This document shows positions 3,001 to 53,902 of a stretch of 64,000 bases of DNA, in pieces. The notes beneath the pieces are model-generated. The model searched no databases. It saw only the letters and a list, made by a program, of their open reading frames with translations, and was not told where the DNA came from. The stretch covers positions 11,627-75,626 of IMG/VR virus record IMGVR_UViG_2706795922_000001. The stretch is one strand, 5' to 3'. Every line of letters begins with the position of its first letter. The stretch's first letter is position 1. The translations under genes were made by a program, and so were the position numbers. The DNA comes from a virus. Taxonomy: Duplodnaviria > Caudoviricetes.

Positions 3001-4776
3001 AAGAGTGGCGATAGGGATAAGCAGAATGCGGCGGTTCCGGGCGTAGACGGTCTGTTGGGGGTTAACCCTTATGACTACTACGGGATCAGTCAGCCGGGCA
3101 CGGCTCAGCTTGTGCCTAACGCTAATAGCACTGACTACCTGGGCAGCATGTCGTCTGTGGCCTCGCAGTTTGGGCTTAGCCTGACTTCGGGAATGCGCGA
3201 TGAGGCCGGTTCGCTTCACAGCACCGGGACGGCGGGCGATTTCTCTAACGGCAGTGGTAACACGCCGGAAATGGAAAAGTTCGCCAACTTCATGGCTGAT
3301 AACTATGCGCCGTACATCACGGAGCTTATCTATGACTCGCCTACGTTCAATAAGACCATCAAGGATGGCAAGATCGTGGGCAAGTTCGGTGAGTTCTACA
3401 CGATGGCGCAGGCCGGTAACCACCAGAACCACGTTCACCTAGCGGTGGACATGCCTCCTATGCTGGCGCAACAGGCTTTCAACCAGTACCAGCAGCAGGC
3501 GGGCGTGGGCGGTGTGGCGGCTCCGGTCGGCGGCGGCGCGGCGGCTTGGCGTCCTAACGTGCAGCAGGCAGTGGCTAACGTCGCTGCTCAGTACGGGATC
3601 ACTAACCAGGCTGCGGTTGTTGAGGACATTCTGGGGCAGATCGACTTTGAGTCTAAGGGTGACGCGGGAGCGCTTAACCCGAATGACTCGGACGGTCTAC
3701 CGGCTATCGGGCTGGGGCAGTTCAAGCAGGGCACGTTCAACGCTCACAACATTACTGGCGGCAGCATCAACGATGGTAACGCTCAGATTTACGCGATGAT
3801 CGACTACTTGGCTTCGGGCAAGTACGGGATTATTCCGGGTGGCGGCGTTAACTGGAAGGGTGTTGGTTGGCGTAATGGGATGGGTTATGCGAATGGCGGT
3901 CTGCTAAGGGGTCCTGGGAACGGCACTTCGGATTCGATTCTGGCGCGCGTTAGCAATGGCGAGTTCATTACTAAGGCGTCGGTGGTTTCTCGTAATCCGG
4001 CTCTGTTCTCGGCGTTCAATTCGGGCGCGCTGGACCCGGCTATGTTCCCTGGTTTCGCGGACGGTACTCCGGTGCCGTTGCAGATCGCGGGTATGCAGCC
4101 GCAGACGCCTCAGCAGGCGGGTCCTCTGCCTCCACCAGCGGCTCCTATGGCGGGTCCTCCGGGACCTGACCCTCAGGCTCCGCAGAGCCAGCCGGGGCAG
4201 CCTCCGGTAACGGATACGGCGGCTCAGGCGCTCGGTGGTATCAGCCTTGGCGGTACTAGTGCGGCAGATGGCGCTCAGCCGGGCGCTGAGGGACCGGAAG
4301 GGGCTAACCCGGAGATTGACCCACGGTCGATTCTCGGTGCGGCTCCGGCGAACACGGACCACAACAATCCTGCTTTGTCTAAGGGCATTCAGGGTGCGTT
4401 TAGCACGGTGGGTTCGATTGCGTCTATGGCGGCGTCGGCAGCTTTGTCGGCGGGCACGATGGGCGCGGGCGCGGCTGCGGCTGGGCCTGCATCGTCTGGT
4501 ATTCAGGCGGGCGCTCAGATGGCCGGTCAGGTCGCTACGGGTGCTCTCAATATCCTGTCGAGCTTGCTTGTTGGTACGGCTCCTGGTCAGACGGGCACGA
4601 CGCAGAACGCGTACGGCGCTCCTGTGCTGCCTCAGGGTCCTCCGCAGAGTCAGCCACGCGGACCGGCTGTGGTGAACAACTACGGCGATATCCATACGGC
4701 TAACTACGAAGAGTTCCATAGGGGACAGCAGCGTAGGGAGGCGCAGACGCAGGCACCATTCCTGCCGATGCGATAA
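1..4776 (+). CDS. tape measure protein (5' truncated by window edge)
   Basis: Ala/Gly-rich ORF of >1586 aa upstream of minor tail genes; helical N-part; two FA(S/N)GG..GPG.GTSDSILARVSNGEFI repeats; transglycosylase-like FESKGD..GLGQF segment. Confidence 0.93.
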   Translation, partial: DEAEAMMNLAEAQAEANNRLGKSAFELQKDQLRLRRAENELADTRKTNGRLAQDVAEANKKGIAGNDAVVAATERLTAALEDQRRGADAVNELADAMAKLSPNAQDFVNKVKALGGAWDELRNAVQDRLFANLGDDVTTLAGKSLPMLQKGLSDVAGSLNGNLRTALRELGSDQNQGFLENIFGNTAEAGKVFDQAIKPLLDGILRLSSVGSDYLPRLSDAFGDVMRRFDNFITRADEDGSLDRWIDQGLTSLTELGNTLLNIASIMNTVSEAFTGAGGTSVTKWLEDNTKRLADFLKGPEGQQKLRDMFANARAEFSKWEPVLKTIPGIIKNIATAAQNWADIVMPFLTTVAPILRDHPGLVMAIFTAYMSWKTFMPIIKGVNTLIGTDTGLVGAAKRAGRSIAAADGLTGKMRAFGQLIGPGGLVMGGLTVLAGFLINDWVNAQQTAADAVQHHADMVDLLKQNLDSLSGSMTQQGLINTINGLSSWTDPRGNRRDIPMIAKDLGLTDQFTRAVNPTDQAGRNQFSGSVREQLRQELGPKLKETVDSVNHERDSRGGDSTGTPVLTEDAFLDALLSGPQTRTDFAKKYFMRETLDDFIFGSKGGPLGIGSTSGLSDRAKNLISLNAATNEAVDSGLVQGDLNRTLGLSLSGQKAEFQPNSPFSQLGSPRAFYNINRDGGAVIEVDTPPDKLPPDLKEKLGDYNITPLANGSGSHIVVDPELAKQFLVPAFASGGMFRGPGSGTSDSILARVSNGEFITRASVVERNPELFHALNAGLIDPAMLPAFAGGTPFPLDIPALPGGPTVPPGYTATNGPTNGFVPAIAGAPMVPWDQLSGGGAQVVSAPRPPTQYRTFTPPAPKPAVKPAAPASTAPSSTGTPHLTGAVPGPTQHLTGPNGSPVLPGPSVAGVPGIPGTSSGSAATVGDTGSPLQNMINGWNPTLTPSVNDPMGLAGLPDNLQPVSILEQAGEILLSAVLGFFGIDPTYFNIGKKIFTGLTGKSGDRDKQNAAVPGVDGLLGVNPYDYYGISQPGTAQLVPNANSTDYLGSMSSVASQFGLSLTSGMRDEAGSLHSTGTAGDFSNGSGNTPEMEKFANFMADNYAPYITELIYDSPTFNKTIKDGKIVGKFGEFYTMAQAGNHQNHVHLAVDMPPMLAQQAFNQYQQQAGVGGVAAPVGGGAAAWRPNVQQAVANVAAQYGITNQAAVVEDILGQIDFESKGDAGALNPNDSDGLPAIGLGQFKQGTFNAHNITGGSINDGNAQIYAMIDYLASGKYGIIPGGGVNWKGVGWRNGMGYANGGLLRGPGNGTSDSILARVSNGEFITKASVVSRNPALFSAFNSGALDPAMFPGFADGTPVPLQIAGMQPQTPQQAGPLPPPAAPMAGPPGPDPQAPQSQPGQPPVTDTAAQALGGISLGGTSAADGAQPGAEGPEGANPEIDPRSILGAAPANTDHNNPALSKGIQGAFSTVGSIASMAASAALSAGTMGAGAAAAGPASSGIQAGAQMAGQVATGALNILSSLLVGTAPGQTGTTQNAYGAPVLPQGPPQSQPRGPAVVNNYGDIHTANYEEFHRGQQRREAQTQAPFLPMR

Positions 4777-10621: not shown

Positions 10622-11839
10622 ATGTCGTGGGATATAAGCCCACCTGACCTGTCTAAGCCTCCGGCTCGGGGTTGGTTCCCGCCGATTGACAGCACGCCTC
10701 CGACGTACGGGGCGGGCTGGTGGGTGGTTCTCAATGTGGAGAACGCCTTATCGGTGCATCTGGTGACTGAGGCTGAGCTTGGGGCGCTGCTGCATCTAGA
10801 CATGGTTACGGCCATTGAGACTGACCGGGAAGCGGCTTTGCGTCAGGTTTCCATGCTGGTGGCTGATGCGCCGATTGCGGTTGACCGTGTGATGTTCTTT
10901 AGTGCGACTTTCCAGTTCGACAATGAGTTGTCGGTAACGGTGGACCGGGCGCTTGAGTTCTCTCGGACGACTGGGCTTGACCTGTCGGCGGTGTTGACGG
11001 CAAGCAGGGCCGCTGGGCTGATTTCGATTGGCAAGCTAAGCGCTGCGCTAAGCGTGGGCGCTAACCGTTCGTCGGGCCTGGTGAAGGTCGCTCCGGTGAG
11101 CTTGTCGCGGTCGGTGTCGGTTGACCGGTCTGCGGACTTCGCTATCCGGTCGAATATCGACGCGGCGCAGATTGTGTCGGGGGATCGGGCGCTTGAGTTG
11201 GCGCGGATCAACTTCATTGACTCGGCGGCGACCGTTAGCGCTAACCGGTTCGCAGCGATGGGCCGTCCTCCGTATGCGACGACGATTCAGCAGTTCTCGT
11301 CGGCAGGCAGCTACTCGTACACGATTCCGCGTAACTGCGACTTCATTGACGTAGTGCTGCTTGGCGGGGGCGGCGGTGGCCGCTCTATGCCTGCGTTCGG
11401 TACGTGGGGTCAGGGTGGTCGCGCCGGGGCGTGGCAGTTCTACACGCTGGTCAGGGGTGTGGACATTCCTTTCTCGGCAACGGTGATTACCGGGACGGTC
11501 GGTAACGGCGGTAATGGCGGCGCGGCGGCGTTCGGTGCTAACAACGGCCAGCCGGGCGGCGCTACGACGGCGGTCGCTACGGGCTGGGCTGGCACGCACA
11601 GTGCGGCGGGCGGCGCGGGTGGCGGCGGCAGCCTTGACCCTAACGGCCAGGGTCCGGGGGATCAGACCTACAACGGCGAGCTTTACGACGGCGGCGAGGA
11701 CCGGGCGTCCGTGGGTACCGGCTTGACCGGTAACGCTCCGGGCGGCGGCGGGACCGCTTCGCAGGTTTCGCTCGGCTTCACCGGTACTGCCGGTGGTAAT
11801 GGTGCGCCGGGAGCCGCCTGGTTCCGCGCTTATCAATAA
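10622..11839 (+). CDS. minor tail protein, glycine-rich C-terminus
   Basis: 405 aa; GGGGGG/GGAGG repeats ending GAAWFRAYQ, typical of mycobacteriophage tail proteins. Confidence 0.8.
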   Translation: MSWDISPPDLSKPPARGWFPPIDSTPPTYGAGWWVVLNVENALSVHLVTEAELGALLHLDMVTAIETDREAALRQVSMLVADAPIAVDRVMFFSATFQFDNELSVTVDRALEFSRTTGLDLSAVLTASRAAGLISIGKLSAALSVGANRSSGLVKVAPVSLSRSVSVDRSADFAIRSNIDAAQIVSGDRALELARINFIDSAATVSANRFAAMGRPPYATTIQQFSSAGSYSYTIPRNCDFIDVVLLGGGGGGRSMPAFGTWGQGGRAGAWQFYTLVRGVDIPFSATVITGTVGNGGNGGAAAFGANNGQPGGATTAVATGWAGTHSAAGGAGGGGSLDPNGQGPGDQTYNGELYDGGEDRASVGTGLTGNAPGGGGTASQVSLGFTGTAGGNGAPGAAWFRAYQ

Positions 11840-28692: not shown

Positions 28693-28947
28693 TCACGTCA
28701 GTTATGAGGCACCTGTTCGCGCTCCATTACTTCCGTAAGGAGCGCGGCAGGTTGCCAACACTCAGAGAGCACTACCGAGAGGTAACAGGTAAGTGAACCT
28801 TCGCTTTAAGGTGCTCGGCTACACCATTGCGTCAGTCGAGCTTGAAATGCCGGAGTCCGTTGAGCCGGAAGTTGCCCAGCCGGTCACGAAGCTCACGCAA
28901 CGCCTCGTTAAGGGCGTTAGCCGCTTGTGGGTTAAGGGGATGGCGGC

Positions 28948-29181
28948 GTGACGGTGGACGGCGTTAAGAAGCGCTCCCCGGAGCAGGGCCGCATCGTTAT
29001 CACCCTTGAGTACGACGTGCCCCGTTCGTACTGGCACCAATACGCAGAGGGCCGCAAGATCACGGTCACTGATGCAGTCGATTGCCTACGGCTGAACGTT
29101 CAGGACTGGGAGGCGGGCGAGCTTTCCCTTGCGGAACTAATCGACGGCGCTAGCGAGATAAGCGTTACCGCCACTAAGTAA
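28948..29181 (+). CDS. hypothetical protein
   Basis: 77 aa, GTG start. Confidence 0.55.
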   Translation: MTVDGVKKRSPEQGRIVITLEYDVPRSYWHQYAEGRKITVTDAVDCLRLNVQDWEAGELSLAELIDGASEISVTATK

Positions 29182-29192
29182 GAAAGACGAAC

Positions 29193-30632
29193 ATGACCAC
29201 TTTCCTACGCAGCTTGCAAGAGCAGTTCAACCACACCACGACGGAGAACGGCGCTCTTGCCCATAAGAGCAGCTTTGATCCGGTGGTGGATTACTTCGGT
29301 CTGGCGGGCGCTATGCGTAACCGGGCTGAGGCTTCGGCTGACCTGTTTGAGACGGCTTTCCGTTCGGACGTGCAGGCCGCGATCCGGACCCTGTTCTATC
29401 TGCGCGACGTGCGCGGCGGGCAGGGGGAGCGCGATGTGTTCCGCGCGGGCCTTAAGCGGCTCGTCGGCCTTAGCCCCGTTAAGGCGGGCCGGGTGTTGCA
29501 GCATGTCCCGTTCTACGGGCGCTGGGACGATCTGCTGATTGAGGGTGTGTTCCAGCACCCGGAGGTCCAGAAGATCATCCTTAACCAGTGGACGGCTGAC
29601 GTGGCGGCGTACGAGCGCGGCGAGGGCGTGTCGCTGATGGCTAAGTGGCTCCCGTCCGACAAGGCGGCGAATAAGGAACTGGCTATCGCGGTCCGCAAGT
29701 CGCTGGGCTTGACGCAGCGCGAGTACCGCCAGACGCTTAGCGCGCTTAGGTCGCGGATCGGTCTGCTTGAGCAGTCTATGTCCCGGAACGATTGGGATAT
29801 CGACTACGGCAAGCTCCCGGCGCAGGCGCACCGTAAGCACGTCAAGGCGTTCCGTCGTCACGCGGAGGGCGAGTACCAGGCGTACTTGGATGCCGTCGAG
29901 CGCGGCGAAGCCAAGATCAACACGGCCACGCTGTACCCGCATGAGCTTTACGACATGGCGACCCGCTACAGCGGCGACCGTAAGGCCGCTGACGTGATGT
30001 GGAACAACCTGCCGGATTACACGCGGGGTACGGAGGCCATCGTCATGGCTGACGTGTCGGGTTCTATGCACCAGTCGTGGAGCCAGGGCGCTAACCCAAT
30101 CGCGGTGTCGGTGTCGTTGGCGCTGTACTTCGCGGAGCGGAACCAGGGCGACTACGCGGGCTACTTCATGACGTTCGCGTCCACTCCGGCGCTCATGAAG
30201 GTGCCTTCCGGGGACCTGAGTGCCCGTCTGAGCGCCATTGAGAACTCTACGGGGTGGATGGGTAGCACAGACGTTGGAAAGGCGTTTGACGCGATCCTGG
30301 CGGCTGGCGTGAAGTCGGGCACTGTCCCGGCGACTCTCTACATCATTTCGGACATGCAGTTCGACCAAGCGATTGACGACGGAAACGATACGACGTTCCA
30401 GACGGCTAAGCGGAAGTTCGCGGCTGCCGGGCTGGAATTGCCGCATGTCGTGTTCTGGAACGTGGACGCTCGGAACGATCAGCTTCCGGCGACGATCTTG
30501 GACGGCCAAGTCACATTGGTTTCCGGCTTCTCGCCTACGGTGTTCGGGATGGCGGTAGAGGGCAAGACTCCGCGCGAGCTTGTGGACTCCGTTATCAACT
30601 CTGAGCGCTACGAGCGGATTAATCCGTTCTAA
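29193..30632 (+). CDS. Ro60/TROVE-like VWA protein (DUF2828 family)
   Basis: TENGA, LRDVRGGQGER, YGRWDDL, AKWLPS motifs; VWA MIDAS DVSGSM, ISDMQFD, FWNV, VSGFS. Confidence 0.88.
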   Translation: MTTFLRSLQEQFNHTTTENGALAHKSSFDPVVDYFGLAGAMRNRAEASADLFETAFRSDVQAAIRTLFYLRDVRGGQGERDVFRAGLKRLVGLSPVKAGRVLQHVPFYGRWDDLLIEGVFQHPEVQKIILNQWTADVAAYERGEGVSLMAKWLPSDKAANKELAIAVRKSLGLTQREYRQTLSALRSRIGLLEQSMSRNDWDIDYGKLPAQAHRKHVKAFRRHAEGEYQAYLDAVERGEAKINTATLYPHELYDMATRYSGDRKAADVMWNNLPDYTRGTEAIVMADVSGSMHQSWSQGANPIAVSVSLALYFAERNQGDYAGYFMTFASTPALMKVPSGDLSARLSAIENSTGWMGSTDVGKAFDAILAAGVKSGTVPATLYIISDMQFDQAIDDGNDTTFQTAKRKFAAAGLELPHVVFWNVDARNDQLPATILDGQVTLVSGFSPTVFGMAVEGKTPRELVDSVINSERYERINPF

Positions 30633-30635
30633 AAC

Positions 30636-30942
30636 TTCCATACTGCGGCTCTGAACCGTAAGCTATGGAAATAGGTGGACACAGACAGCAATTACTTTGT
30701 TTGCATACAACAGAGAAATGTGTCCAGTAATGCTTGTGGACCCCCACAGCAATTGACAACTCACAGGAAAAACCGGTGGTCGCGGGTTCGAGTCCCGCTC
30801 GCTCGGGTAGACCGGGCGATAGCTCAGTTGGTAGAGCATTGGTCGCAGTTAAAAACGGGGTCCAGTTAAAGCGGTTGTGGACGGTAACAGCAACCTAAAA
30901 CTTTCACTGCTAATGAAATCAAATTCCGTCCAGTCCCACCGC
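30636..30942 (+). ncRNA. array of Y-RNA-like ncRNAs with tRNA-mimic modules
   Basis: three GTGGAC-N4-ACAGCAA...GTCCAGT units with covarying stems; permuted T-acceptor-D module; anticodon-like hairpins. Confidence 0.8.
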
Positions 30943-30949
30943 GCAGATC

Positions 30950-30991
30950 GCCTCCGTATTCAGCCTTAGCGGCTGACCGGGGGCTTTTTTG
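30950..30991 (+). terminator. intrinsic terminator after RNA array
   Basis: GCCTCCG..TCAGCC-TTAGC-GGCTGA..CGGGGGC followed by TTTTTTG. Confidence 0.7.
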
Positions 30992-31013
30992 TGCCCAAAC
31001 TAAGGGAGACACC

Positions 31014-31355
31014 ATGAAGAGAGTTATCGGCGCGCTCGCTGCCGCTGCCGCGCTTGTGGCACTGCCCGCGTGCGCCACCCAGAATCAGCACTGGGAAAAC
31101 GGCTGCAAGGTCACGTCCAAGGACACCATTTACGACAAGGACTCCGAGGGCGGCGTTAAGCGCGTTAAGCGCGTTAGCACGACCTGCGGCGCGTTCAACG
31201 TGGAGGACGCCTGGGAGGCCGGATCGTTCAACAGCTACGACCTGTGGGCGAAGCTGGAAGAGGGCAAGGTCTACGACCTCAAGGTTGGCGGCATCCGCAA
31301 CGGCTTCTTTTCCATGTTCCAGACGGTCCTAGAGGTTAAGGGTCCGAATGGCTAG
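31014..31355 (+). CDS. lipoprotein
   Basis: MKRVIGALAAAAALVALPAC signal peptide/lipobox; GGGAG RBS. Confidence 0.75.
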   Translation: MKRVIGALAAAAALVALPACATQNQHWENGCKVTSKDTIYDKDSEGGVKRVKRVSTTCGAFNVEDAWEAGSFNSYDLWAKLEEGKVYDLKVGGIRNGFFSMFQTVLEVKGPNG

Positions 31356-31665
31356 CCGGATCGTTCGGGAGGCCATCGCCAAGTACGCCGAGGCCAAGGG
31401 CCAGGACACCGGGCTAGACACGTTCTACCCGGTGCCTAACCGGGCCATGAAGCGGGCGTTCACCTTCGGCGGCAAGAAAACCCTGATCCCTAGCGGTAAC
31501 GGGGTGCCTGCGGTGCTGATGCGTGAGGGCCGGTCGCGGATTACGAGGGGTACCTCGCGGCCTAAGCCTCGCGGCAAGGTGCTAACGGACGGCCTTAAGC
31601 CGATCTTCGTTGACGAGCACGGCGAAGTCGTGGACATGGCGAAGTTCTACGAGGCGGCGGCGTGA
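31348..31665 (+). CDS. hypothetical protein
   Basis: 105 aa, overlaps previous gene. Confidence 0.6.
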   Translation: MASRIVREAIAKYAEAKGQDTGLDTFYPVPNRAMKRAFTFGGKKTLIPSGNGVPAVLMREGRSRITRGTSRPKPRGKVLTDGLKPIFVDEHGEVVDMAKFYEAAA

Positions 31666-38264: not shown

Positions 38265-39128
38265 GTGGTGGCCGTTTACTTAAGGGCTTACAACGAGGAA
38301 CTGGGCACCGTGCGAAATGTGGCGGTGCCCTTTCAGTATCCCGGTGGCGAATGGGACCTTAAAGCGGTCCACCAGTTCGACTACCAGTACGTGACGTGGG
38401 TGGCCGAAGTTCGCGGCGCTGACCTTAACGACTATATGGCGGCGGCTCTGCTGTCTAACGTCGCGGTACAGCGTGGCGAGGACTTCGTTCTTATGGTCCC
38501 TTACCTGCCTGCTGCTCGCGCGGACAAGGGGAGTCCTGCCGGTTGCATCCCGTATGGCGACCTAATCGCGGCGATGAACACGACGAACATCATCACGATT
38601 GATCCGCACTCTTACCGGATGCCCGACTATCTGCGGGCGACCGCTGGTGCGGTTACCGCGTTGTCGGCGCTGCCGCTGCTGGACCGGTCGCTTGAGAGCC
38701 AGGGGCATTGGCGGTTCGACGGGATCATTGCACCGGATAAGGGCGCTAAGGACCGCGCCGAAGAGGTCGCTAAGCATTACGGGTTGGACCTGTATGTGGC
38801 CGACAAGGTGCGCGATTTCGACACCGGCAAGATTCTTGACTACAAGATCAACGTTCCTAAGAGCGGTCAATATCTGGTGGTTGACGATATCTGCGACGGC
38901 GGCTGGACGTTCAAAGAGCTAGCGGAGGTTAGCGGCCTGTTCCAGTCGCAGCTTAGCTTGTGGGTTACGCATGGAATCTTTTCCGGTAACGCCCATGAGC
39001 TTCGCACTTATTACCGGCGCATCTATACGACGGACTCGCATCCCGGCCATAACCGGGTGGGGATCGCTACGACGATTGTGCCCACCTTTACCTACATGCA
39101 TGAAGCGATGACTAAGGGGATCAAGTGA
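38265..39128 (+). CDS. ribose-phosphate pyrophosphokinase-like enzyme (Adps-like)
   Basis: PYLPAARADK, IDPHS, APDKGA, VVDDICDGG, THGIFS. Confidence 0.88.
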   Translation: MVAVYLRAYNEELGTVRNVAVPFQYPGGEWDLKAVHQFDYQYVTWVAEVRGADLNDYMAAALLSNVAVQRGEDFVLMVPYLPAARADKGSPAGCIPYGDLIAAMNTTNIITIDPHSYRMPDYLRATAGAVTALSALPLLDRSLESQGHWRFDGIIAPDKGAKDRAEEVAKHYGLDLYVADKVRDFDTGKILDYKINVPKSGQYLVVDDICDGGWTFKELAEVSGLFQSQLSLWVTHGIFSGNAHELRTYYRRIYTTDSHPGHNRVGIATTIVPTFTYMHEAMTKGIK

Positions 39129-40600
39129 GCACGAAATTCGCGCCAGTGGCGGCGCTGTTCCAGACGGACGCGTACAAGCTGGGGCACATTCAGCAGTACG
39201 CGCTTAGCGGGAACGTGACTAACGTCTATTCCAACTGGACTAACCGGAAGTCGCGCCTGCCAGGCGTCGATAAGGTCGTTCACTTCGGCTTGCAGGCTTA
39301 TATCGCTAAGCACCTGATGGAAGCGTTTGAGCCGTTCTTTGAGGCTGACGAGGACACGGTTGCCGCGCTGTACGAGGAACGCGTTACGCAGATTCTCGGG
39401 CCTAACACGATTGGCTCCGGCCATATCCGCAAGCTGCACCGTAAGGGCTATCTGCCGCTCCGCTTCTGTGCGGTGCCGGAGGGGACGATGGTTCCTATCG
39501 GCGTGCCTAGCTTCACCGTGGAGAACACGGACCCGGAGTTCTACTGGCTGACCAACTACGTGGAGACCGGCATTAGCGCGGGCGTGTGGCAGGCCAGCAC
39601 TAGCGCGACCATCGCTAAGGAATACCGGCGCGTGATGATGGACGCGGCGCGGCTTACCGGCTCAGACCCGGTTGGCGTTGACTGGCAGGTCCACGACTTC
39701 TCTTACCGGGGCATGTCCTCGCATGAGAGCGCGGCGGCGTCGGGCGCGGCTCACCTGTTGAGCTTCACCGGAACGGACTCGCTGGTGTCGCTTGAGTGGA
39801 TCGACCGCTACTACGGCGGCGACTACATCGCTGGCTCGGTGCCCGCTACTGAGCACTCGGTGATGTGTACCGGCATTGAGACGGTAGGGGAGCTTGAGAC
39901 GTTCAAGCGGCTCTTGGCGCTGTACCCGGACGGGATCGTTAGCGTCGTTAGCGACACCTTCGATCTGTGGCGCGTGCTGTGGGAGTACCTGCCTGCCTTG
40001 CAGAAGCAGATCATGGCGCGCAACGGCAAGCTGGTGATCCGGCCTGACTCGGGCGATCCGGAAAAGATCATCTGCGGTGATCCTGACGCGCCGGTCGGCT
40101 CTAAAGAGTGGTACGGCGTGCTGGGCGCTCTCTACGAGCACTTCGGCGGCAAGCAGAACGCGGCGGGCTTCATTGAGATTGATTCGCACGTAGGCGTCAT
40201 TTACGGCGACTCCATCACGCTTGAGCGCGCTAAGAGCATCACTGACCGGATGGCGAAGCTCGGCTATGCCTCTTCCAATGTGGTGTTCGGTGTGGGCAGC
40301 TTCACCTACCAGCACAACACGCGCGACACGTTCGGGTCCGCGATGAAAGCGACGTGGGTAAAGGTCGGCGCTAACACGTACGACCTGCTTAAGGACCCGG
40401 TTACCGACGACGGCACCAAGAAGTCCGCGACCGGGCGTCTGGCGGTGCTACGCGATCTGCACGGCGAGCTTGTACTTCTGCAAAGGGCCGACTGGATGGA
40501 CGAATACTCGTCGGAGCTTCGTCCGGTTTGGGAGAACGGCAAGTTCGTCAACTTCCAGTCATTTGCCCACGTCAGGGGCGTGCTGGGGTCCTACTCGTAA
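39125..40600 (+). CDS. nicotinamide phosphoribosyltransferase-like enzyme (Namat-like)
   Basis: TDAYKLGH, HDFSYRG, SVPATEHSVM, SVVSDTFD, IRPDSGDP, YGDSIT, KKSATG. Confidence 0.92.
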   Translation: MSTKFAPVAALFQTDAYKLGHIQQYALSGNVTNVYSNWTNRKSRLPGVDKVVHFGLQAYIAKHLMEAFEPFFEADEDTVAALYEERVTQILGPNTIGSGHIRKLHRKGYLPLRFCAVPEGTMVPIGVPSFTVENTDPEFYWLTNYVETGISAGVWQASTSATIAKEYRRVMMDAARLTGSDPVGVDWQVHDFSYRGMSSHESAAASGAAHLLSFTGTDSLVSLEWIDRYYGGDYIAGSVPATEHSVMCTGIETVGELETFKRLLALYPDGIVSVVSDTFDLWRVLWEYLPALQKQIMARNGKLVIRPDSGDPEKIICGDPDAPVGSKEWYGVLGALYEHFGGKQNAAGFIEIDSHVGVIYGDSITLERAKSITDRMAKLGYASSNVVFGVGSFTYQHNTRDTFGSAMKATWVKVGANTYDLLKDPVTDDGTKKSATGRLAVLRDLHGELVLLQRADWMDEYSSELRPVWENGKFVNFQSFAHVRGVLGSYS

Positions 40601-40607
40601 ATTCAGG

Positions 40608-40653
40608 TGTCCGACTTTCCGGACAGATTGGCGTCTGTCCGGACTGTCGGTGC
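40608..40653. promoter_or_regulatory. distal copy of the immunity operator-like site
   Basis: TGTCCGACTTTCCGGACA (40608-40625) plus a partial inverted copy at 40636-40653. Confidence 0.6.
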
Positions 40654-40686
40654 TTGACTGATTTGCAGACGAGAAAGGGGGCCAGA

Positions 40687-41625
40687 ATGGCTCTGACTCT
40701 TACCGCGATGCGGGGATATCCCGGCTCGGGTAAAAGCACGAAAGCGCGGGAGATTGCGGACGCTACCGGGGCGGTAGTCGTTAACCGCGATGCGCTCCGG
40801 AAGATGCTTCACGGCGAGTGGTTCCACGACACGCACGCTAAGGACGCTAAGACGTTTGAGGCTGAGGTAACCATTGCGGAGCGCGCGGCGGTTCAGGCTT
40901 ACCTCAAAGAGGGCGTGTCGGTGGTGGTGGACGCTACGCACTTGGAGCCGTCTTACCTCCGCAAGTGGAGCAAGCTCGCGGCGCAGTACGGCGCTCAGTT
41001 CGTCCGCGTTGACGTGGATACGGACTTGGCGACGTGTAAGCAGCGTGACCATGCTCGGATGCTGGCTGGTGGCCGGTACGTCGGTGACAAGGTGATTGAC
41101 CGGATGGCTAAGCGTCATCCGGTTAAGAACTGGCCGGATATTCAAGCGCCACCCACCTTTGAGGTTGAGCCGGTCGAATGGCTGCCGTGCCTGCCTGAGG
41201 CGATCATCGTTGACATTGACGGGACGCTCGCGCAGATGACCGGGCGCTCTCCGTACGACTACAGCCAGGTCCATACGGACGTGGTTGACGAGCAGATCAA
41301 GTGGCTCGTTAACACGCTCTGGCAGTGGAACGAGGACTTGCGGGTTCTGATCGTTTCCGGGCGAGACGACGAGTGCCGGGACGCAACCTTTAGCTGGCTG
41401 GTCGCTAACGGTATTCGGTTCGACCAGTTGCATATGCGGCCTACCGGCTCGGTGGATAACCACGGAAACAAGCTGCCGGATTACCTGATCAAGTACCGGC
41501 TGTTCAACGAGCACATTCGCGGGAAGTACAACGTCCGCTTTGTGCTGGACGACCGTAATCAGGTGGTGGACCTGTGGCGTTCACTCGGGCTTAAGTGCCT
41601 GCAAGTTCAACCGGGAGATTTCTAA
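40687..41625 (+). CDS. pnk: polynucleotide kinase/3'-phosphatase (T4 Pnk-like)
   Basis: GYPGSGKST P-loop, NRDALR; HAD DIDGT, SGR, LDDR. Confidence 0.92.
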   Translation: MALTLTAMRGYPGSGKSTKAREIADATGAVVVNRDALRKMLHGEWFHDTHAKDAKTFEAEVTIAERAAVQAYLKEGVSVVVDATHLEPSYLRKWSKLAAQYGAQFVRVDVDTDLATCKQRDHARMLAGGRYVGDKVIDRMAKRHPVKNWPDIQAPPTFEVEPVEWLPCLPEAIIVDIDGTLAQMTGRSPYDYSQVHTDVVDEQIKWLVNTLWQWNEDLRVLIVSGRDDECRDATFSWLVANGIRFDQLHMRPTGSVDNHGNKLPDYLIKYRLFNEHIRGKYNVRFVLDDRNQVVDLWRSLGLKCLQVQPGDF

Positions 41626-44188: not shown

Positions 44189-44407
44189 ATGTCTCACGAA
44201 AAGACTTCCGAGGTAGTTCGGAAGATTCATAAGGCTGCTCGCGTCCGGGGGATGGAACTAACCATTTCCCGGCGCGGGGGCAATCACACCATTTACGACT
44301 TAGACGGTCACATGGTCACTATCCCTAACGGCTCTAAGGTCACGCGGGTTGAGGCCACTTACCGGCAGTTGCAACCGAAACTTGGAAAAGGGTGGTGGCG
44401 CGAATGA
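44189..44407 (+). CDS. HicA-like small protein
   Basis: 72 aa; RRGGNHTIY..VTIP pattern. Confidence 0.5.
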   Translation: MSHEKTSEVVRKIHKAARVRGMELTISRRGGNHTIYDLDGHMVTIPNGSKVTRVEATYRQLQPKLGKGWWRE

Positions 44408-45702
44408 GCTTCGACGCACCTGAGAACGTTAACTACGCGGCGACCATCGTTAAGCTGCCTGAGCCGCAGGCGGTGCCGGGGCTGGACAACCTCGTCGGTA
44501 TCCCGATGTTCGGTTACCAGGCGCTAACGCAGAAGGACTCCGCTAAGGCCGGGGACCTCCGGGTGCTGTTCGTCGCGGAGACGCAGCTTGACCATGAGTA
44601 CGCGAGCGCCAACAACCTGTACCGGGAGGCGACCCTTAACGCGGACTCCACTCAGACCGGCTACCTAGAGCAGAACGCTCGGGTTAAGGCGATCCGGCTC
44701 CGCAAGAACCAGTCGGACTGTCTGCTGATGCCGCTTGAGTCGCTGGCCTACACCGGCTACGACGTGAGCACGCTCAAGGTCGGGGACACGTTCGACAAGC
44801 TGAACGGCCACGTTGTTTGCCGTAAGTACGTTCCTGCTGGTCAGCGCACCGCCGGCTCGGTTGCTGGGGCGCCCAAGATTCGGCAGCGGGTTGACCAGAA
44901 GTTGTTCCCGATGCATCTGGACACGGAGCACCTGTTCCGGAATCTCCAATGGTTCCGTAAGCCCCGCCACGTCGTCATCACGCAGAAGTTGCATGGGACT
45001 AGCTGGCGCGGCGGGAACGTGCCTGTGCGGCGAGATAAGGGCCGTTTGGAGCGCCTTGTGAACCGGCTGGGGATCAAGACTCCGGACACGGAGTACGAGC
45101 ATGTGTTCGGCTCGCGTCGGGTGGTCAAGGGCAAGAGCACCGACAACCACTACTACGAGTCCGATCTGTGGACCGACTACGGGCAGAAGCTCTTGGGGCT
45201 TATCCCTAAGAACTTCATGGTCTACGGCGAGCTTATTGGGTGGGTGGACGACCAGTCCCCGATTCAGAAGGGCTACACGTACAACCTGCTGCCGGGCACC
45301 GCTGAGCTTTACGTGTACCGGGTGGCGACGGTTAACGAGGACGGCGTTATCGCTGACCTGTCCTGGGAGGGCGTTAAGGACTTCTGCCGGTCGCTTGGGC
45401 TTAAGTGGACGCCTGAGCTTTGGGCGGGGATCGAATGCGTGCCGGAATCGGTAGACGATGAGAGCTTCGTTTCCGGCTACCAGTTGGACTACTTGGACGC
45501 GCGGTTCACCGATAGTCCGGGTGCCCAGCATTTCAACGAGGCTCCGGTTCCGCTTAGCAACGCTAAGACGGTGGATGAGGGCATTTGCGTGCGGATTGAG
45601 GGTCAGATTCCGCGCGTGTTCAAGGCCAAGTCTCCCAAGTTCTTGGAACACGAGACTAAGGCGCTTGATAACAACGAGGTCGATTTGGAGGCCGCTGCTT
45701 AA
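44404..45702 (+). CDS. ATP-dependent RNA ligase (Rnl2/DRB0094-like)
   Basis: TQKLHGTS adenylylation motif, VYGEL, DEGICVR, FKAKS. Confidence 0.88.
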   Translation: MSFDAPENVNYAATIVKLPEPQAVPGLDNLVGIPMFGYQALTQKDSAKAGDLRVLFVAETQLDHEYASANNLYREATLNADSTQTGYLEQNARVKAIRLRKNQSDCLLMPLESLAYTGYDVSTLKVGDTFDKLNGHVVCRKYVPAGQRTAGSVAGAPKIRQRVDQKLFPMHLDTEHLFRNLQWFRKPRHVVITQKLHGTSWRGGNVPVRRDKGRLERLVNRLGIKTPDTEYEHVFGSRRVVKGKSTDNHYYESDLWTDYGQKLLGLIPKNFMVYGELIGWVDDQSPIQKGYTYNLLPGTAELYVYRVATVNEDGVIADLSWEGVKDFCRSLGLKWTPELWAGIECVPESVDDESFVSGYQLDYLDARFTDSPGAQHFNEAPVPLSNAKTVDEGICVRIEGQIPRVFKAKSPKFLEHETKALDNNEVDLEAAA

Positions 45703-46352
45703 TGACTGACTACAAAGAGGAAATCAAGGCGCTGCGGTTGCGCGAGCTTAAGGCTAAGGCTGAGCTTGCAGAGTTGCACGCGGCTCAGGCCGCGCGCCAG
45801 GAGGCCCATTTCCTAGCGACTGATGACATGGTGCGTAAGCACTACTTCATTGGTGGCGTGGACTCTAAGAACGTCGCGGATTGCGCGCAGCACTTGGAGT
45901 TCTGGCACCGGATTGACCCGACGTGCGACATGACCATTGAGATTCACTCGGGCGGCGGCTCGGCGCTGGCGGGGATCAACCTGTTTGAGCACCTGACGCG
46001 CTACAGCTTGCAGGGCGGCGGGACGCACAAGCTGACCATGCATGTGTGTGGCCTGGCTGCCTCTATGGCGACGGTGCTGGTGCAGGCTGCCGACGAGCGT
46101 GTCATTGGGCCGGAGTCGTGGTTCATGGTGCATGAACTGTCGGGCCAGACGGCGGGCAAGATCGGTGAGCTTGAGGACACGATGAGCTTCTACCGGCGTC
46201 TTAACGACCGTATTGGCGAAATCTATGTGGCGCGGTCGGGCGGCAAGTTGTCCCCGGAGGGCTTTAAGGCTCTGTGGACGCGGCAGGACGTGTGGCTGAC
46301 GCCCACGCAGGCGCTTGACTTCGGCATGGTGGATCGGATTGGAGGCGTTTAA
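45702..46352 (+). CDS. ClpP-like protease
   Basis: HSGGG, GLAASMA (Ser), MVHE (His), DVWLT..ALDFGMVD. Confidence 0.88.
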   Translation: MTDYKEEIKALRLRELKAKAELAELHAAQAARQEAHFLATDDMVRKHYFIGGVDSKNVADCAQHLEFWHRIDPTCDMTIEIHSGGGSALAGINLFEHLTRYSLQGGGTHKLTMHVCGLAASMATVLVQAADERVIGPESWFMVHELSGQTAGKIGELEDTMSFYRRLNDRIGEIYVARSGGKLSPEGFKALWTRQDVWLTPTQALDFGMVDRIGGV

Positions 46353-52504: not shown

Positions 52505-52578
52505 TGCCCGCTAGCACAATTGGCAGTTGCGCTGCGCTCTGAACGCAGAGGTTCCAGGTTCGACTCCTGGGTGGGCAG
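52505..52578 (+). tRNA. tRNA-Gln(CTG)
   Basis: TGCCCGC/GTGGGCA acceptor; CTGCG-CTCTGAA-CGCAG. Confidence 0.88.
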
Positions 52579-53781: not shown

Positions 53782-53825
53782 CCCCTACCTAAGCCTCTCC
53801 TAGATGCTCAAATGGGTAGGGCCGT

Positions 53826-53896
53826 TCCCCTGTCATCTAAAGGCAGGATGCCTCGCTGTTAACGAGGTCACGCAGGTTCGACCCCTGCTGGGGGAG
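53826..53896 (+). tRNA. tRNA-Asn(GTT)
   Basis: TCCCCTG/TGGGGGA acceptor; CCTCG-CTGTTAA-CGAGG. Confidence 0.85.
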
Positions 53897-53902
53897 CTTA
53901 AG

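Follow-up and report, generated by a model that had tools for sequence, protein, structure and literature searches.

Y RNAs are encoded beside Ro60 in bacteria and in 22 phages, mycobacteriophages included (Chen et al. 2014, PMC4201824; this and the other articles cited here are drawn on in part). The bacterial YrlA and YrlB RNAs are small, lie next to a Ro60-type gene on the same strand, often several consecutively, and arise by processing of a single precursor. Their terminal stem bears a conserved motif on its 5' strand, and YrlA carries a permuted tRNA-like domain composed of a T-arm, a closed acceptor stem and a D-arm (PMC4201824). Ro60 binds the conserved stem, and the remainder of the Y RNA gates the ring or serves to tether other proteins (PMC4201824, PMC7790460). 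In Salmonella, rsr-yrlBA-rtcBA links Ro60 and Y RNA to tRNA anticodon-loop cleavage and RNA repair, and its authors suggested that YrlA's tRNA-like domain could act as a competitive inhibitor of an anticodon nuclease (Hughes et al. 2020, PMC7790460). Among phages, the Thermus phage phiLo encodes a Ro60-fold protein with adjacent Y-like RNAs, Yrl1 and Yrl2; Ro60, the Yrl RNAs and host PNPase form complexes, and a counter-defence role was proposed via PNPase (PMC12135203; structures 9l5y and 9kop).

Here we analyse a window of 64,000 nucleotides (nt), by which we mean the whole stretch studied (positions 11,627 to 75,626 of IMG/VR record IMGVR_UViG_2706795922_000001), and a region within it, 30633-30990, that is very probably an array of Y RNAs with a genuine mimic of an anticodon arm. 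The window makes up most of the 75.6-kb genome of a mycobacteriophage of cluster L (Lumosvirus-like). In the region, a post-stop hairpin is followed by three Y-RNA-like units and a putative terminator, all on the plus strand downstream of a DUF2828/VWA gene. Like YrlA and YrlB, the units are small, follow one another beside a Ro60-type gene on its strand and have a terminal stem; the conserved motif on its 5' strand occupies the corresponding position but has another sequence. Like YrlA, one of them has a permuted tRNA-like domain, and as in phiLo the Ro60-fold protein next to them belongs to a phage.

The array and the adjacent Ro60-fold gene

The first unit begins 44 nt past the stop codon of the gene at 29193-30632, on the same strand. 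Each unit has a UGGAC-N/N-GUCCA closing stem, with ACAGCAA after the 5' strand. This frame in its strict form, TGGAC-N(2-5)-ACAGCAA, has three occurrences in the window (30676, 30737 and 30878) and none on the opposite strand. The array of the original prediction, which was made from the letters of this DNA, is thus real, on one strand and found in this region alone of the window. The three hairpins that it singled out, one behind the stop codon and one each in units 1 and 3, are present where it placed them.

Units 1 (51 nt) and 3 (55 nt) have one apical hairpin, or head, each. Unit 3 (30878-30932) is closed by TGGACGG/CCGTCCA, carries ACAGCAA at 30887-30893 and displays a head at 30902-30918, made of TTTCA (30902-30906), the loop CTGCTAA (30907-30913) and TGAAA (30914-30918). 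A tRNA anticodon arm has a 5-bp stem and a 7-nt loop with a pyrimidine at position 32, U at 33 and a purine at 37; A38 is usual in bacteria. The unit 3 head has this form throughout, with C32 at 30907, U33 at 30908, the triplet GCU at 30909-30911, A37 at 30912 and A38 at 30913. Hairpins whose 7-nt loop reads CT...AA and whose stem has 5 bp or more number 12 on the plus strand and 2 on the minus strand of the whole window; among the 12 are six real tRNA arms, the post-stop and unit 3 hairpins of the original prediction, and four located elsewhere. With a background of about 6 such hairpins per 128 kb, about 0.013 would therefore be expected in 283 nt of one strand. By its sequence, the head UUUCA-CUGCUAA-UGAAA appears to be a real anticodon-arm mimic.

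Unit 1 (30676-30726; frame TGGACACA/TGTGTCCA; ACAGCAA at 30685-30691) has a different head (30695-30715), in which CTTTGTT (30695-30701) and AACAGAG (30709-30715) enclose the loop TGCATAC (30702-30708). This loop has G, not U, at position 33. It had been called ambiguous for lacking U33, and we place UGCAUAC in a separate, non-anticodon UGC class.

Unit 2 (30737-30864; frame TGGACCCC/GGGGTCCA; ACAGCAA at 30746-30752) is a YrlA-type tRNA mimic. Its fold presents, in this order, a T-arm (about 30781-30798), a closed 7-bp acceptor-like hairpin and a D-arm. The Rfam model of YrlA (RF02553) matches 30762-30870 with 39.3 bits (E 4.4e-7), short of the gathering score of 69, and there is a tmRNA/tRNA T-arm sub-match at 30781-30798. 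Unit 2 has its elements in the YrlA order and, as far as these matches go, resembles YrlA though it lies under the curated threshold. Besides this sub-threshold YrlA match, no Rfam 15 family covered the array, and none covered its small units; neither ARAGORN nor the Rfam tRNA model called a tRNA in 30633-30990.

The array is followed by a terminator-like stem (30950-30990), GCCTCCG...CGGGGGC around an inner TCAGCC/GGCTGA hairpin and then six T, and the arrays of relatives likewise end in a G+C-rich hairpin and a T-run. A scan of 28900-31400 for consensus promoters and terminators returned no site of either kind, and the terminator is putative, judged from its fold and T-run. Since the scan shows no promoter-like site between gene and array, the two would probably be co-transcribed, ending at this terminator. 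The open reading frames (ORFs) 30675-30869 and 30734-30898, as well as gene 55 of Samty and gene 55 of Finnry (both hypothetical), wholly overlie Y-RNA units; these ORFs are probably not genes.

The upstream gene (29193-30632, plus strand) encodes 479 aa with DUF2828, DUF7788 and a VWA domain with a DxSxS motif. Its counterparts in relatives are annotated as 'Ro-like RNA binding protein'. Pfam detects DUF7788 (7.5e-33) and DUF2828 (8.8e-26); VWA_2 scores 24.7 bits, under the cut-off of 27. TROVE was not detected in the Pfam search, and a sequence search of the PDB gave no Ro60 match. An AlphaFold2 model built with 53 homologs had a pLDDT (predicted local distance difference test) of 92.3 and a pTM (predicted template modelling score) of 0.92. 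At E ≤ 0.001 its Foldseek matches were exclusively Ro60/TROVE structures, over the full length, including 1yvr (E 5.4e-8, TM 0.61) and the Thermus phage phiLo protein 9l5y, whose structures are among the best matches. Because all matches at this threshold are Ro60, the protein is, as modelled, a Ro60-fold ring carrying a VWA domain, which bears out the earlier description of it as Ro-like.

Anticodon-like heads in related phages

A tblastn search with the Ro-like protein found homologs in 699 phage records. We sampled 83 distinct IMG/VR loci with a Ro-like gene and screened them with a loose detector, which looks, within 700 nt of the gene, for [AG]CAGC[AG][AC] preceded at a distance of 0-3 nt by the end of the 5' strand of a stem with 7 bp or more. 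This gave 219 units on the strand of the gene (150 small and 69 large, a minority of them false) versus 34 on the opposite strand. Units are present in 68 of the 83 loci, two or more in 51, upstream or downstream of the gene; the detector misses UCAGCAA frames, which were seen by eye in locus L051. The frame stem covaries, from UGGAC/GUCCA to UAGAC/GUCUA(G), AAGAC/GUCUUG, AAGAU/AUCUU, UAAGAU/AUCUUG, UGAGC/GCUCA and others.

Several named phages have such units. In Listeria phage P100 (L103:1100-1430, upstream of gp165), three of them stand behind a TTGACA...TATCAT promoter, and the 'tRNA splicing ligase' RtcB lies about 1.3 kb downstream, near the Ro-like gene. The Felix-O1-like phage UAB_Phi87 has units within a tRNA array (L104:3258-3324 and 3930-4055), one of them beneath the minus-strand hypothetical coding sequence (CDS) Phi87_08. 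Campylobacter phage F336 (L106:1322-1473) has a head CAUUA-CUGAUAA-UGAUG, and a Staphylococcus phage (L107:3032-3094) has the same units of stem and ACAGCAA beside a DUF2828 gene. In Vibrio phage nt-1 no convincing unit adjoins the homolog. No Rfam 15 model matched the small units of L018-L023, L051 and the four named phages. The Ro-like reading frames of L069, L076, L082 and L097, as seen by tblastn, hold one or two in-frame TAA or TAG each, which could reflect pseudogenes, sequencing errors or recoded stops; these four were omitted from the protein alignment.

We then counted head types. Once a real tRNA (L098) and three artefacts due to T-arms (L051 3214, L079 3215 and L061 3119) had been taken out, 146 small units from 76 loci gave 113 unique interiors, which we compared with 1000 dinucleotide shuffles. 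A hairpin with a 7-nt loop and 4 bp or more in its stem occurs in 77 of the 113 (36.6 ± 4.6 in shuffles), YU...R. loops in 29 (4.0 ± 1.9) and CU...AA loops on a stem of at least 4 bp, hereafter strict heads, in 23 (0.67 ± 0.81); none of the 1000 shuffles reached any of these counts. Three permuted control patterns had no occurrence each (shuffle means 0.35-0.60), and loops of 5, 6 and 8 nt showed no excess in the small units. The 23 strict heads come from 21 loci and represent 17 distinct combinations of stem and loop, with 5-bp stems in 16 of them. Their 10 loops display the triplets GCU, GUU, UCU, UUU, GCA, UGA, CAU, AUU, UUC and UCC, and match the tRNA loops of the window in form.

The same signature is seen in alignment A4, a structure-blind MAFFT alignment of 20 units chosen for having a hairpin. 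U33, A37 and A38 are nearly invariant, as is CAGCAA. The five stem pairs are 92% paired, a figure that is partly built in because the rows were chosen for their hairpin, as the loop conservation is not. There are 43 double-change cells, against 13.9 ± 2.9 when shuffled and 9-15 with a slid partner. Two rows misaligned by MAFFT (L092d and L068b) were kept and counted as unpaired. This family-level loop signature and the covarying stems uphold the earlier reading of the Ser-GCU hairpin of unit 3 as an anticodon-arm mimic on a Ro-type RNA. Judged on sequence, the design is repeated by many unrelated phages with other 'anticodons'.

Other head classes accompany the anticodon-like one. A UGG class is closed by A-U (A-AAUGG-U, A-ACUGG-U, AUUUGGA, AUUUGG) and a UGC class includes UGCAUAC (unit 1 of the window), UGCAUAU, UGCGGAU and UUGCAU. 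Many heads of these two classes hold bases complementary to ACAGCAA, and the remaining heads are irregular or lack a clear hairpin.

In two loci, more of a tRNA is retained. In L019, the unit 3127-3210 contains a mini D-like hairpin, the arm UUUUUCA-CUCAUAA-UGAAAAA and a T-arm, all within the frame. Downstream of the Ro-like gene of L051 (3165-3832), four matches to the Rfam tRNA model exceed the threshold (53.3, 52.4, 36.6 and 36.0 bits). They are about 113-118 nt long each and have an insert of 51-52 nt in place of the anticodon loop. This insert is the Y-RNA anchor, a frame stem closed by a small loop and then ACAGCAA, and the first match retains the arm CTTTTT-CTGCAAA-AAAAAG. The L051 forms look like a YrlA counterpart without the permutation, a 'tRNA with a Ro handle'. 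Together, the L019 and L051 forms link the family to an ancestry in tRNAs and, through circular permutation, to YrlA.

We compared 16 arrays of cluster L phages. Over 30500-31020 the closest GenBank relatives are Lolly9, MiniLon, MiniMac, Samty and Moostard (95.6-96.0% identity). All 16 arrays share one plan, with a post-stop hairpin, a small unit, a YrlA-type unit, a small unit and a terminator; the middle unit of Aegeus is small. Compensatory variants of the frame include TGGACAC/GTGTCCA, TGGACGC/GCGTCCA, TGAGCGC/GCGCTCA and TGGGCGCG/TGCGCCCA in unit 1, and TGGACGG/CCGTCCA, TGGTCAC/GTGACCA and TGGACACG/TGTGTCCA in unit 3. The heads vary between subclusters. In L3 (the window and six relatives) they are UGCAUAC in unit 1 and CUGCUAA in unit 3. 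The L4-type phages Douge, Chaser and DyoEdafos have CUGCUAA in unit 1 (with one A fewer in Bromden) and ACUGG or AAUGG in unit 3. L2-type phages have UGCGGAU in unit 1, and in unit 3 CUGUUAA in CELFI and degenerate heads in Archie and Tourach. The L1-type phages AvadaKedavra and Fezzik have AUGGUAA in unit 1 and an irregular unit 3. Finally, Aegeus has CUUCUAA in unit 1, with no anticodon-like hairpin resolved in unit 3. Several YrlA-type units have an additional hairpin ahead of the T-arm, with the loop AUGAUAA or CUGUUAA on a weak stem.

Heads swap between units across groups; each subcluster has at least one anticodon-like head, and its position is not fixed. The original prediction had expected orthologous arrays to keep a 7-nt loop with U33 and a purine at 37 while the anticodon switches. 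This holds at the level of the family (7-nt loop, U33, A37, A38, varying triplets and covarying stems) and fails for fixed positions: an anticodon-like head stands in unit 3 only in L3 and one L2 phage, and in L4, L1 (as an A32 variant) and L5 it is unit 1 that has one.

The post-stop hairpin is another matter. It starts four bases after the stop codon and spans 35 nt of the plus strand (30636-30670), with TTCCATA (30636-30642), TGCGG (30644-30648), CTCTGAA (30649-30655), CCGTA (30656-30660) and TATGGAA (30664-30670). As had been pointed out, its 7-nt loop CTCTGAA is identical to that of the phage's tRNA-Gln(CTG), whose arm CTGCG-CTCTGAA-CGCAG lies at 52532-52548. The two share the 9-nt string GCTCTGAAC. 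It had consequently been listed as a Gln-CUG mimic of the array, which is not supported: the hairpin has no ACAGCAA frame and lies outside every unit, and CUCUGAA is found in the window only. Some hairpin is retained at this spot in every cluster L relative read, with differing loops. The site has the 6-nt loop GCTAGG in Samty, Lolly9, Whirlwind, Douge and Bromden, and L1/L2 phages have a different perfect hairpin with GATACCGGG-type stems and loops of 4-5 nt. As far as this comparison goes, the hairpin would fall outside the Y-RNA/anticodon-mimic system; it is not a Y-RNA unit and possibly serves as a processing or stability element. The loop has been rewritten from GCTAGG, which is kept from L3 to L4, to CTCTGAA inside a region about 96% identical to relatives. 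This could result from patch conversion or selection, or perhaps from chance. We do not claim gene conversion from tRNA-Gln, as the shared string has just 9 nt and we estimate that about 0.5 such matches are expected window-wide.

Possible functions of the heads

The units may be viewed as two modules. The anchor, a 7-8-bp terminal stem (U-G-G-A-C-N / N-G-U-C-C-A-G) followed by ACAGCAA on the 5' strand, would dock on the Ro-like ring by analogy with Y RNAs, and we consider it probable, on that analogy, that the array RNAs are held by the Ro-like protein. The head would be the exchangeable effector part, namely a tRNA elbow in unit 2, a free anticodon arm in unit 3 and a UGC-type loop in unit 1. 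If the effector is an anticodon arm, its partners would be proteins able to read anticodon loops. Once anchored, it could act as bait, competing with or tethering such proteins, and the likeliest targets would be host anticodon-loop nucleases or the enzymes mending their damage. We infer transcription, processing, binding by the Ro-like protein and bait function of the units. A bait or tether for readers of anticodon loops is in our opinion a serious prospect, just short of an even one, and a decoy directed specifically against nucleases is doubtful; such decoys are not a defined RNA family. We tentatively extend the proposal to the Ro60-fold DUF2828/VWA proteins of about 700 phages with many different hosts, which might form a widespread counter-defence ribonucleoprotein in which a constant anchor bears interchangeable tRNA parts that trap, report or redirect host enzymes attacking anticodon loops, the triplet tracking the specificity of the nucleases that each phage lineage encounters. 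These parts would comprise anticodon arms of different triplets, tRNA elbows and whole tRNA bodies; both the role and this repertoire are speculative and somewhat improbable.

A bait for nucleases or repair enzymes is favoured because the phage carries Pnkp, an RNA ligase, genes of nicotinamide adenine dinucleotide (NAD) salvage and ten tRNAs. ARAGORN found these 10 tRNAs in the window, and a tRNA model run on the whole 75,626-base genome found the same 10 places, all within the window. None is a tRNA-Ser by either approach, so the absence already noted for the window extends to the entire genome. Pnkp, with kinase and HAD phosphatase domains, is encoded at 40528-41625 and the RNA ligase at 44392-45702. 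Counter-defence-looking genes at 39125-41625 and 44392-46352 include, with these two, a NAPRTase-family enzyme and a ClpP-like protease, and the annotations of Samty also include a phosphoribosyl pyrophosphate transferase and a nucleotidyl transferase. A kit of tRNAs, repair and NAD salvage is commonly read as an answer to defences that cleave tRNA and deplete NAD (PMC7824862, PMC10264068). Elsewhere in the window, an Rfam match to abiF RNA (53784-53821; 39 bits, gathering score 37) directly precedes a tRNA (53826-53896 in Rfam). ARAGORN labels 53805-53897 as tRNA-Pyl(cta); its arm GCCTCG-CTGTTAA-CGAGGT is Asn-like, and Samty is annotated with tRNA-Asn there.

Several observations weigh against this interpretation. 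Anticodon-like heads make up just 23-29 of the 113 unique small units, and unique sequences are not independent, the strict heads being judged to represent about 15 lineages. The loose detector has a background of about 21 matches per strand in the G+C-rich 64-kb window, and because of this background a minority of the 219 units, perhaps a fifth or so judged by the 34 matches on the opposite strand, are false. The unit 3 mimic is retained at the orthologous position only in L3 and CELFI. In six cluster L phages, about 2 of 8 head triplets coincide with one of the phage's own tRNAs, roughly as by chance; GCU, GAU, GGU and UCU are absent from the own tRNA sets, GUU is present in CELFI and Archie, and no rule emerges. 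Fifteen of the 23 strict loops fit CU[GU][CU]UAA and 17 have U36, and these two biases make the triplets less free than in a tRNA set. A U36 bias is the signature of tRNAs reading ANN codons. The motif of the strict loops could instead be the binding site of one protein, unrelated to tRNA. CUGCUAA and CUGUUAA, the two commonest strict loops, are complementary to ACAGCAA. Finally, tRNA-Ser(gct) is, in the part of the article used here, not targeted by known mycobacterial nucleases (PMC10264068).

Among the alternatives, the heads may recruit tRNA-handling enzymes to the Ro-like ring, which would serve as a platform for mending, modifying or clearing damaged tRNAs without any nuclease bait. Candidate recruits are the phage Pnkp and RNA ligase, host RtcB, PNPase and the enzymes that modify anticodon loops, such as the t6A machinery. 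The t6A machinery needs U36-A37, and U36-A37-A38 is present in 17 of the 23 strict loops, a bias that perhaps results from A+T-rich composition and relatedness. Bacterial Ro60 and Y RNAs are encoded with RtcB/RtcA and a Y RNA tethers PNPase (PMC7790460, PMC4201824), YrlA is modified in vivo by tRNA enzymes (PMC4201824), and complexes with host PNPase are described for the Thermus phage (PMC12135203). RtcB is also found near the Ro-like gene of P100, and Pnkp and a ligase are present in the window; these two lie 10-14 kb away from the array and do not adjoin it. We consider this explanation unlikely on the whole.

The heads may also be relics or generic caps, that is, stable U-turn hairpins inherited by tRNA-derived Y RNAs, in which the identity of triplet and loop has no function. 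The tRNA ancestry visible in YrlA-type units, the L019 unit and the L051 tRNA matches fits this idea, as does the free swapping of heads between classes among close relatives. Yet U33, A37 and A38 are near-invariant though all five stem pairs change, and CU...AA loops are in excess (23 versus 0.67). A neutral relic is expected to decay, and decayed forms do occur in Archie, Tourach and L024. An origin as functionless relics is therefore improbable to us.

In the original prediction, the Ro-like protein holds the Gln-CUG and Ser-GCU stem-loops, which would serve as decoys, sensors or substrates of repair in relation to mycobacterial nucleases of the VapC/MazF type. Both hairpins have a canonical anticodon-loop form, the phage has Pnkp and an RNA ligase, mycobacteriophage tRNAs have been argued to counter host anticodon nucleases (PMC10264068) and YrlA was proposed to be a competitive inhibitor (PMC7790460). 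However, the Gln hairpin lacks a Y-RNA frame, and none of the 5 relatives aligned, close and distant, shares its loop. Because tRNA-Ser(GCU) is reported as untargeted (PMC10264068), the link to VapC/MazF-type nucleases, and with it a decoy for the known mycobacterial ones, is unsupported. Heads of these types are also found in many uncultured phages and in phages with Listeria-, Campylobacter- and enterobacteria-type hosts, and therefore nothing ties them to mycobacterial toxins. We regard this specific role as quite improbable.

A further explanation is that heads pair with ACAGCAA, either within their own unit or in a neighbouring one, through a pseudoknot or kissing interaction that controls folding or Ro binding, their anticodon likeness being a by-product. 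Complementarity of at least 4 nt to ACAGCAA is found in 13 of the 77 loops of 7 nt, versus 3.1 ± 1.6 when shuffled (0 of 2000 shuffles reach it) and 2-3 for three scrambled control motifs, which is another point that our interpretation must face. But these 13 loops represent few lineages, 14 of the 23 strict heads lack such complementarity (CUUCUAA, CUUUUAA, CUUGAAA, CUGCAAA, CUCAUAA and others), and pairing leaves C32, U33, A37 and A38 unexplained; we find it very unlikely as a general account. Lastly, chance hairpins in an intergenic region or small protein-coding ORFs, as the GenBank CDSs over the array (Finnry 55, Samty 55) and the window ORFs 30675-30869 and 30734-30898 might imply, are hardly credible given the frame statistics, strand bias, compensatory changes, YrlA match and loop signature, and given a 5-nt insertion in DuncansLeg within the region.

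Comparison with known systems

The family gives a far sharper handle on the tRNA likeness of Y RNAs, with very short RNAs whose sole variable part is a textbook anticodon arm, shown with different triplets in tandem. As the RNAs are short, their anticodon arm is variable and the phages are engineerable and plated on M. smegmatis, the question is directly testable. The analysis also links a large uncharacterised family of phage proteins, DUF2828/DUF7788 (699 phage records), to Ro60 biology, and defines an RNA module of stem and ACAGCAA that is not in Rfam 15. A number of CDSs annotated as hypothetical in phage genomes are, the analysis suggests, in fact RNA genes.

The protein partner differs from that of YrlA and YrlB, as it has DUF2828/DUF7788 and VWA, lacks a Pfam TROVE match and is a Ro60 by fold only. 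Vertebrate Y RNAs have the motif GGUCCGA on their 5' strand and a helix UGGUC/GACCA, which the UGGAC/GUCCA and UGGUC/GACCA stems of the phage units resemble. The anchor motif here is ACAGCAA, at the position where bacterial YrlA and YrlB have GNCGAAN0-1G (PMC4201824). The companion small RNAs described in that article are long hairpins with small pyrimidine-rich loops, unlike the 5-bp/7-nt anticodon arms found here. The 'anticodon arm' of D. radiodurans Yrn1, the only one mentioned in the part of the article drawn on, has a 6-nt loop in place of 7 nt (PMC4201824). The phiLo RNAs have a CGAA motif and a stem-bulge-stem shape, and heads made of tRNA parts are not mentioned in the accessible part of their description (PMC12135203). 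Salmonella YrlA has no anticodon loop (PMC7790460), whereas here the loop is displayed on separate small phage units with varying triplets. Compared with tRNA anticodon arms in general, the heads have A+U-rich stems and receive no tRNA call from ARAGORN or Rfam.

T4 Pnkp and Rnl1 repair the tRNA-Lys cut by PrrC. The tRNAs of mycobacteriophages, in turn, have been argued to escape nucleases or to stand in for the host tRNAs that these target (van den Berg et al. 2023, PMC10264068). The window phage, with its 10 tRNAs, Pnkp and RNA ligase, belongs to the same arms-race setting. Those systems are functional tRNAs or enzymes, whereas the heads are arms without a tRNA body and not chargeable.

In our literature searches we found no published description of a DUF2828-type Ro60 family with an ACAGCAA anchor, of small units headed by a canonical anticodon arm with a varying triplet, or of unpermuted tRNA-anchor chimeras. 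The YrlA-type unit of cluster L phages may already be listed in the supplementary tables of Chen et al. 2014, which lie outside the part of that work visible here. Hence, Y RNAs beside Ro60, the tRNA mimicry of YrlA and the suggestion of competition with a nuclease were known, and what this family of phage arrays would add is the ACAGCAA anchor, the anticodon-arm heads and the tRNA-anchor chimeras.

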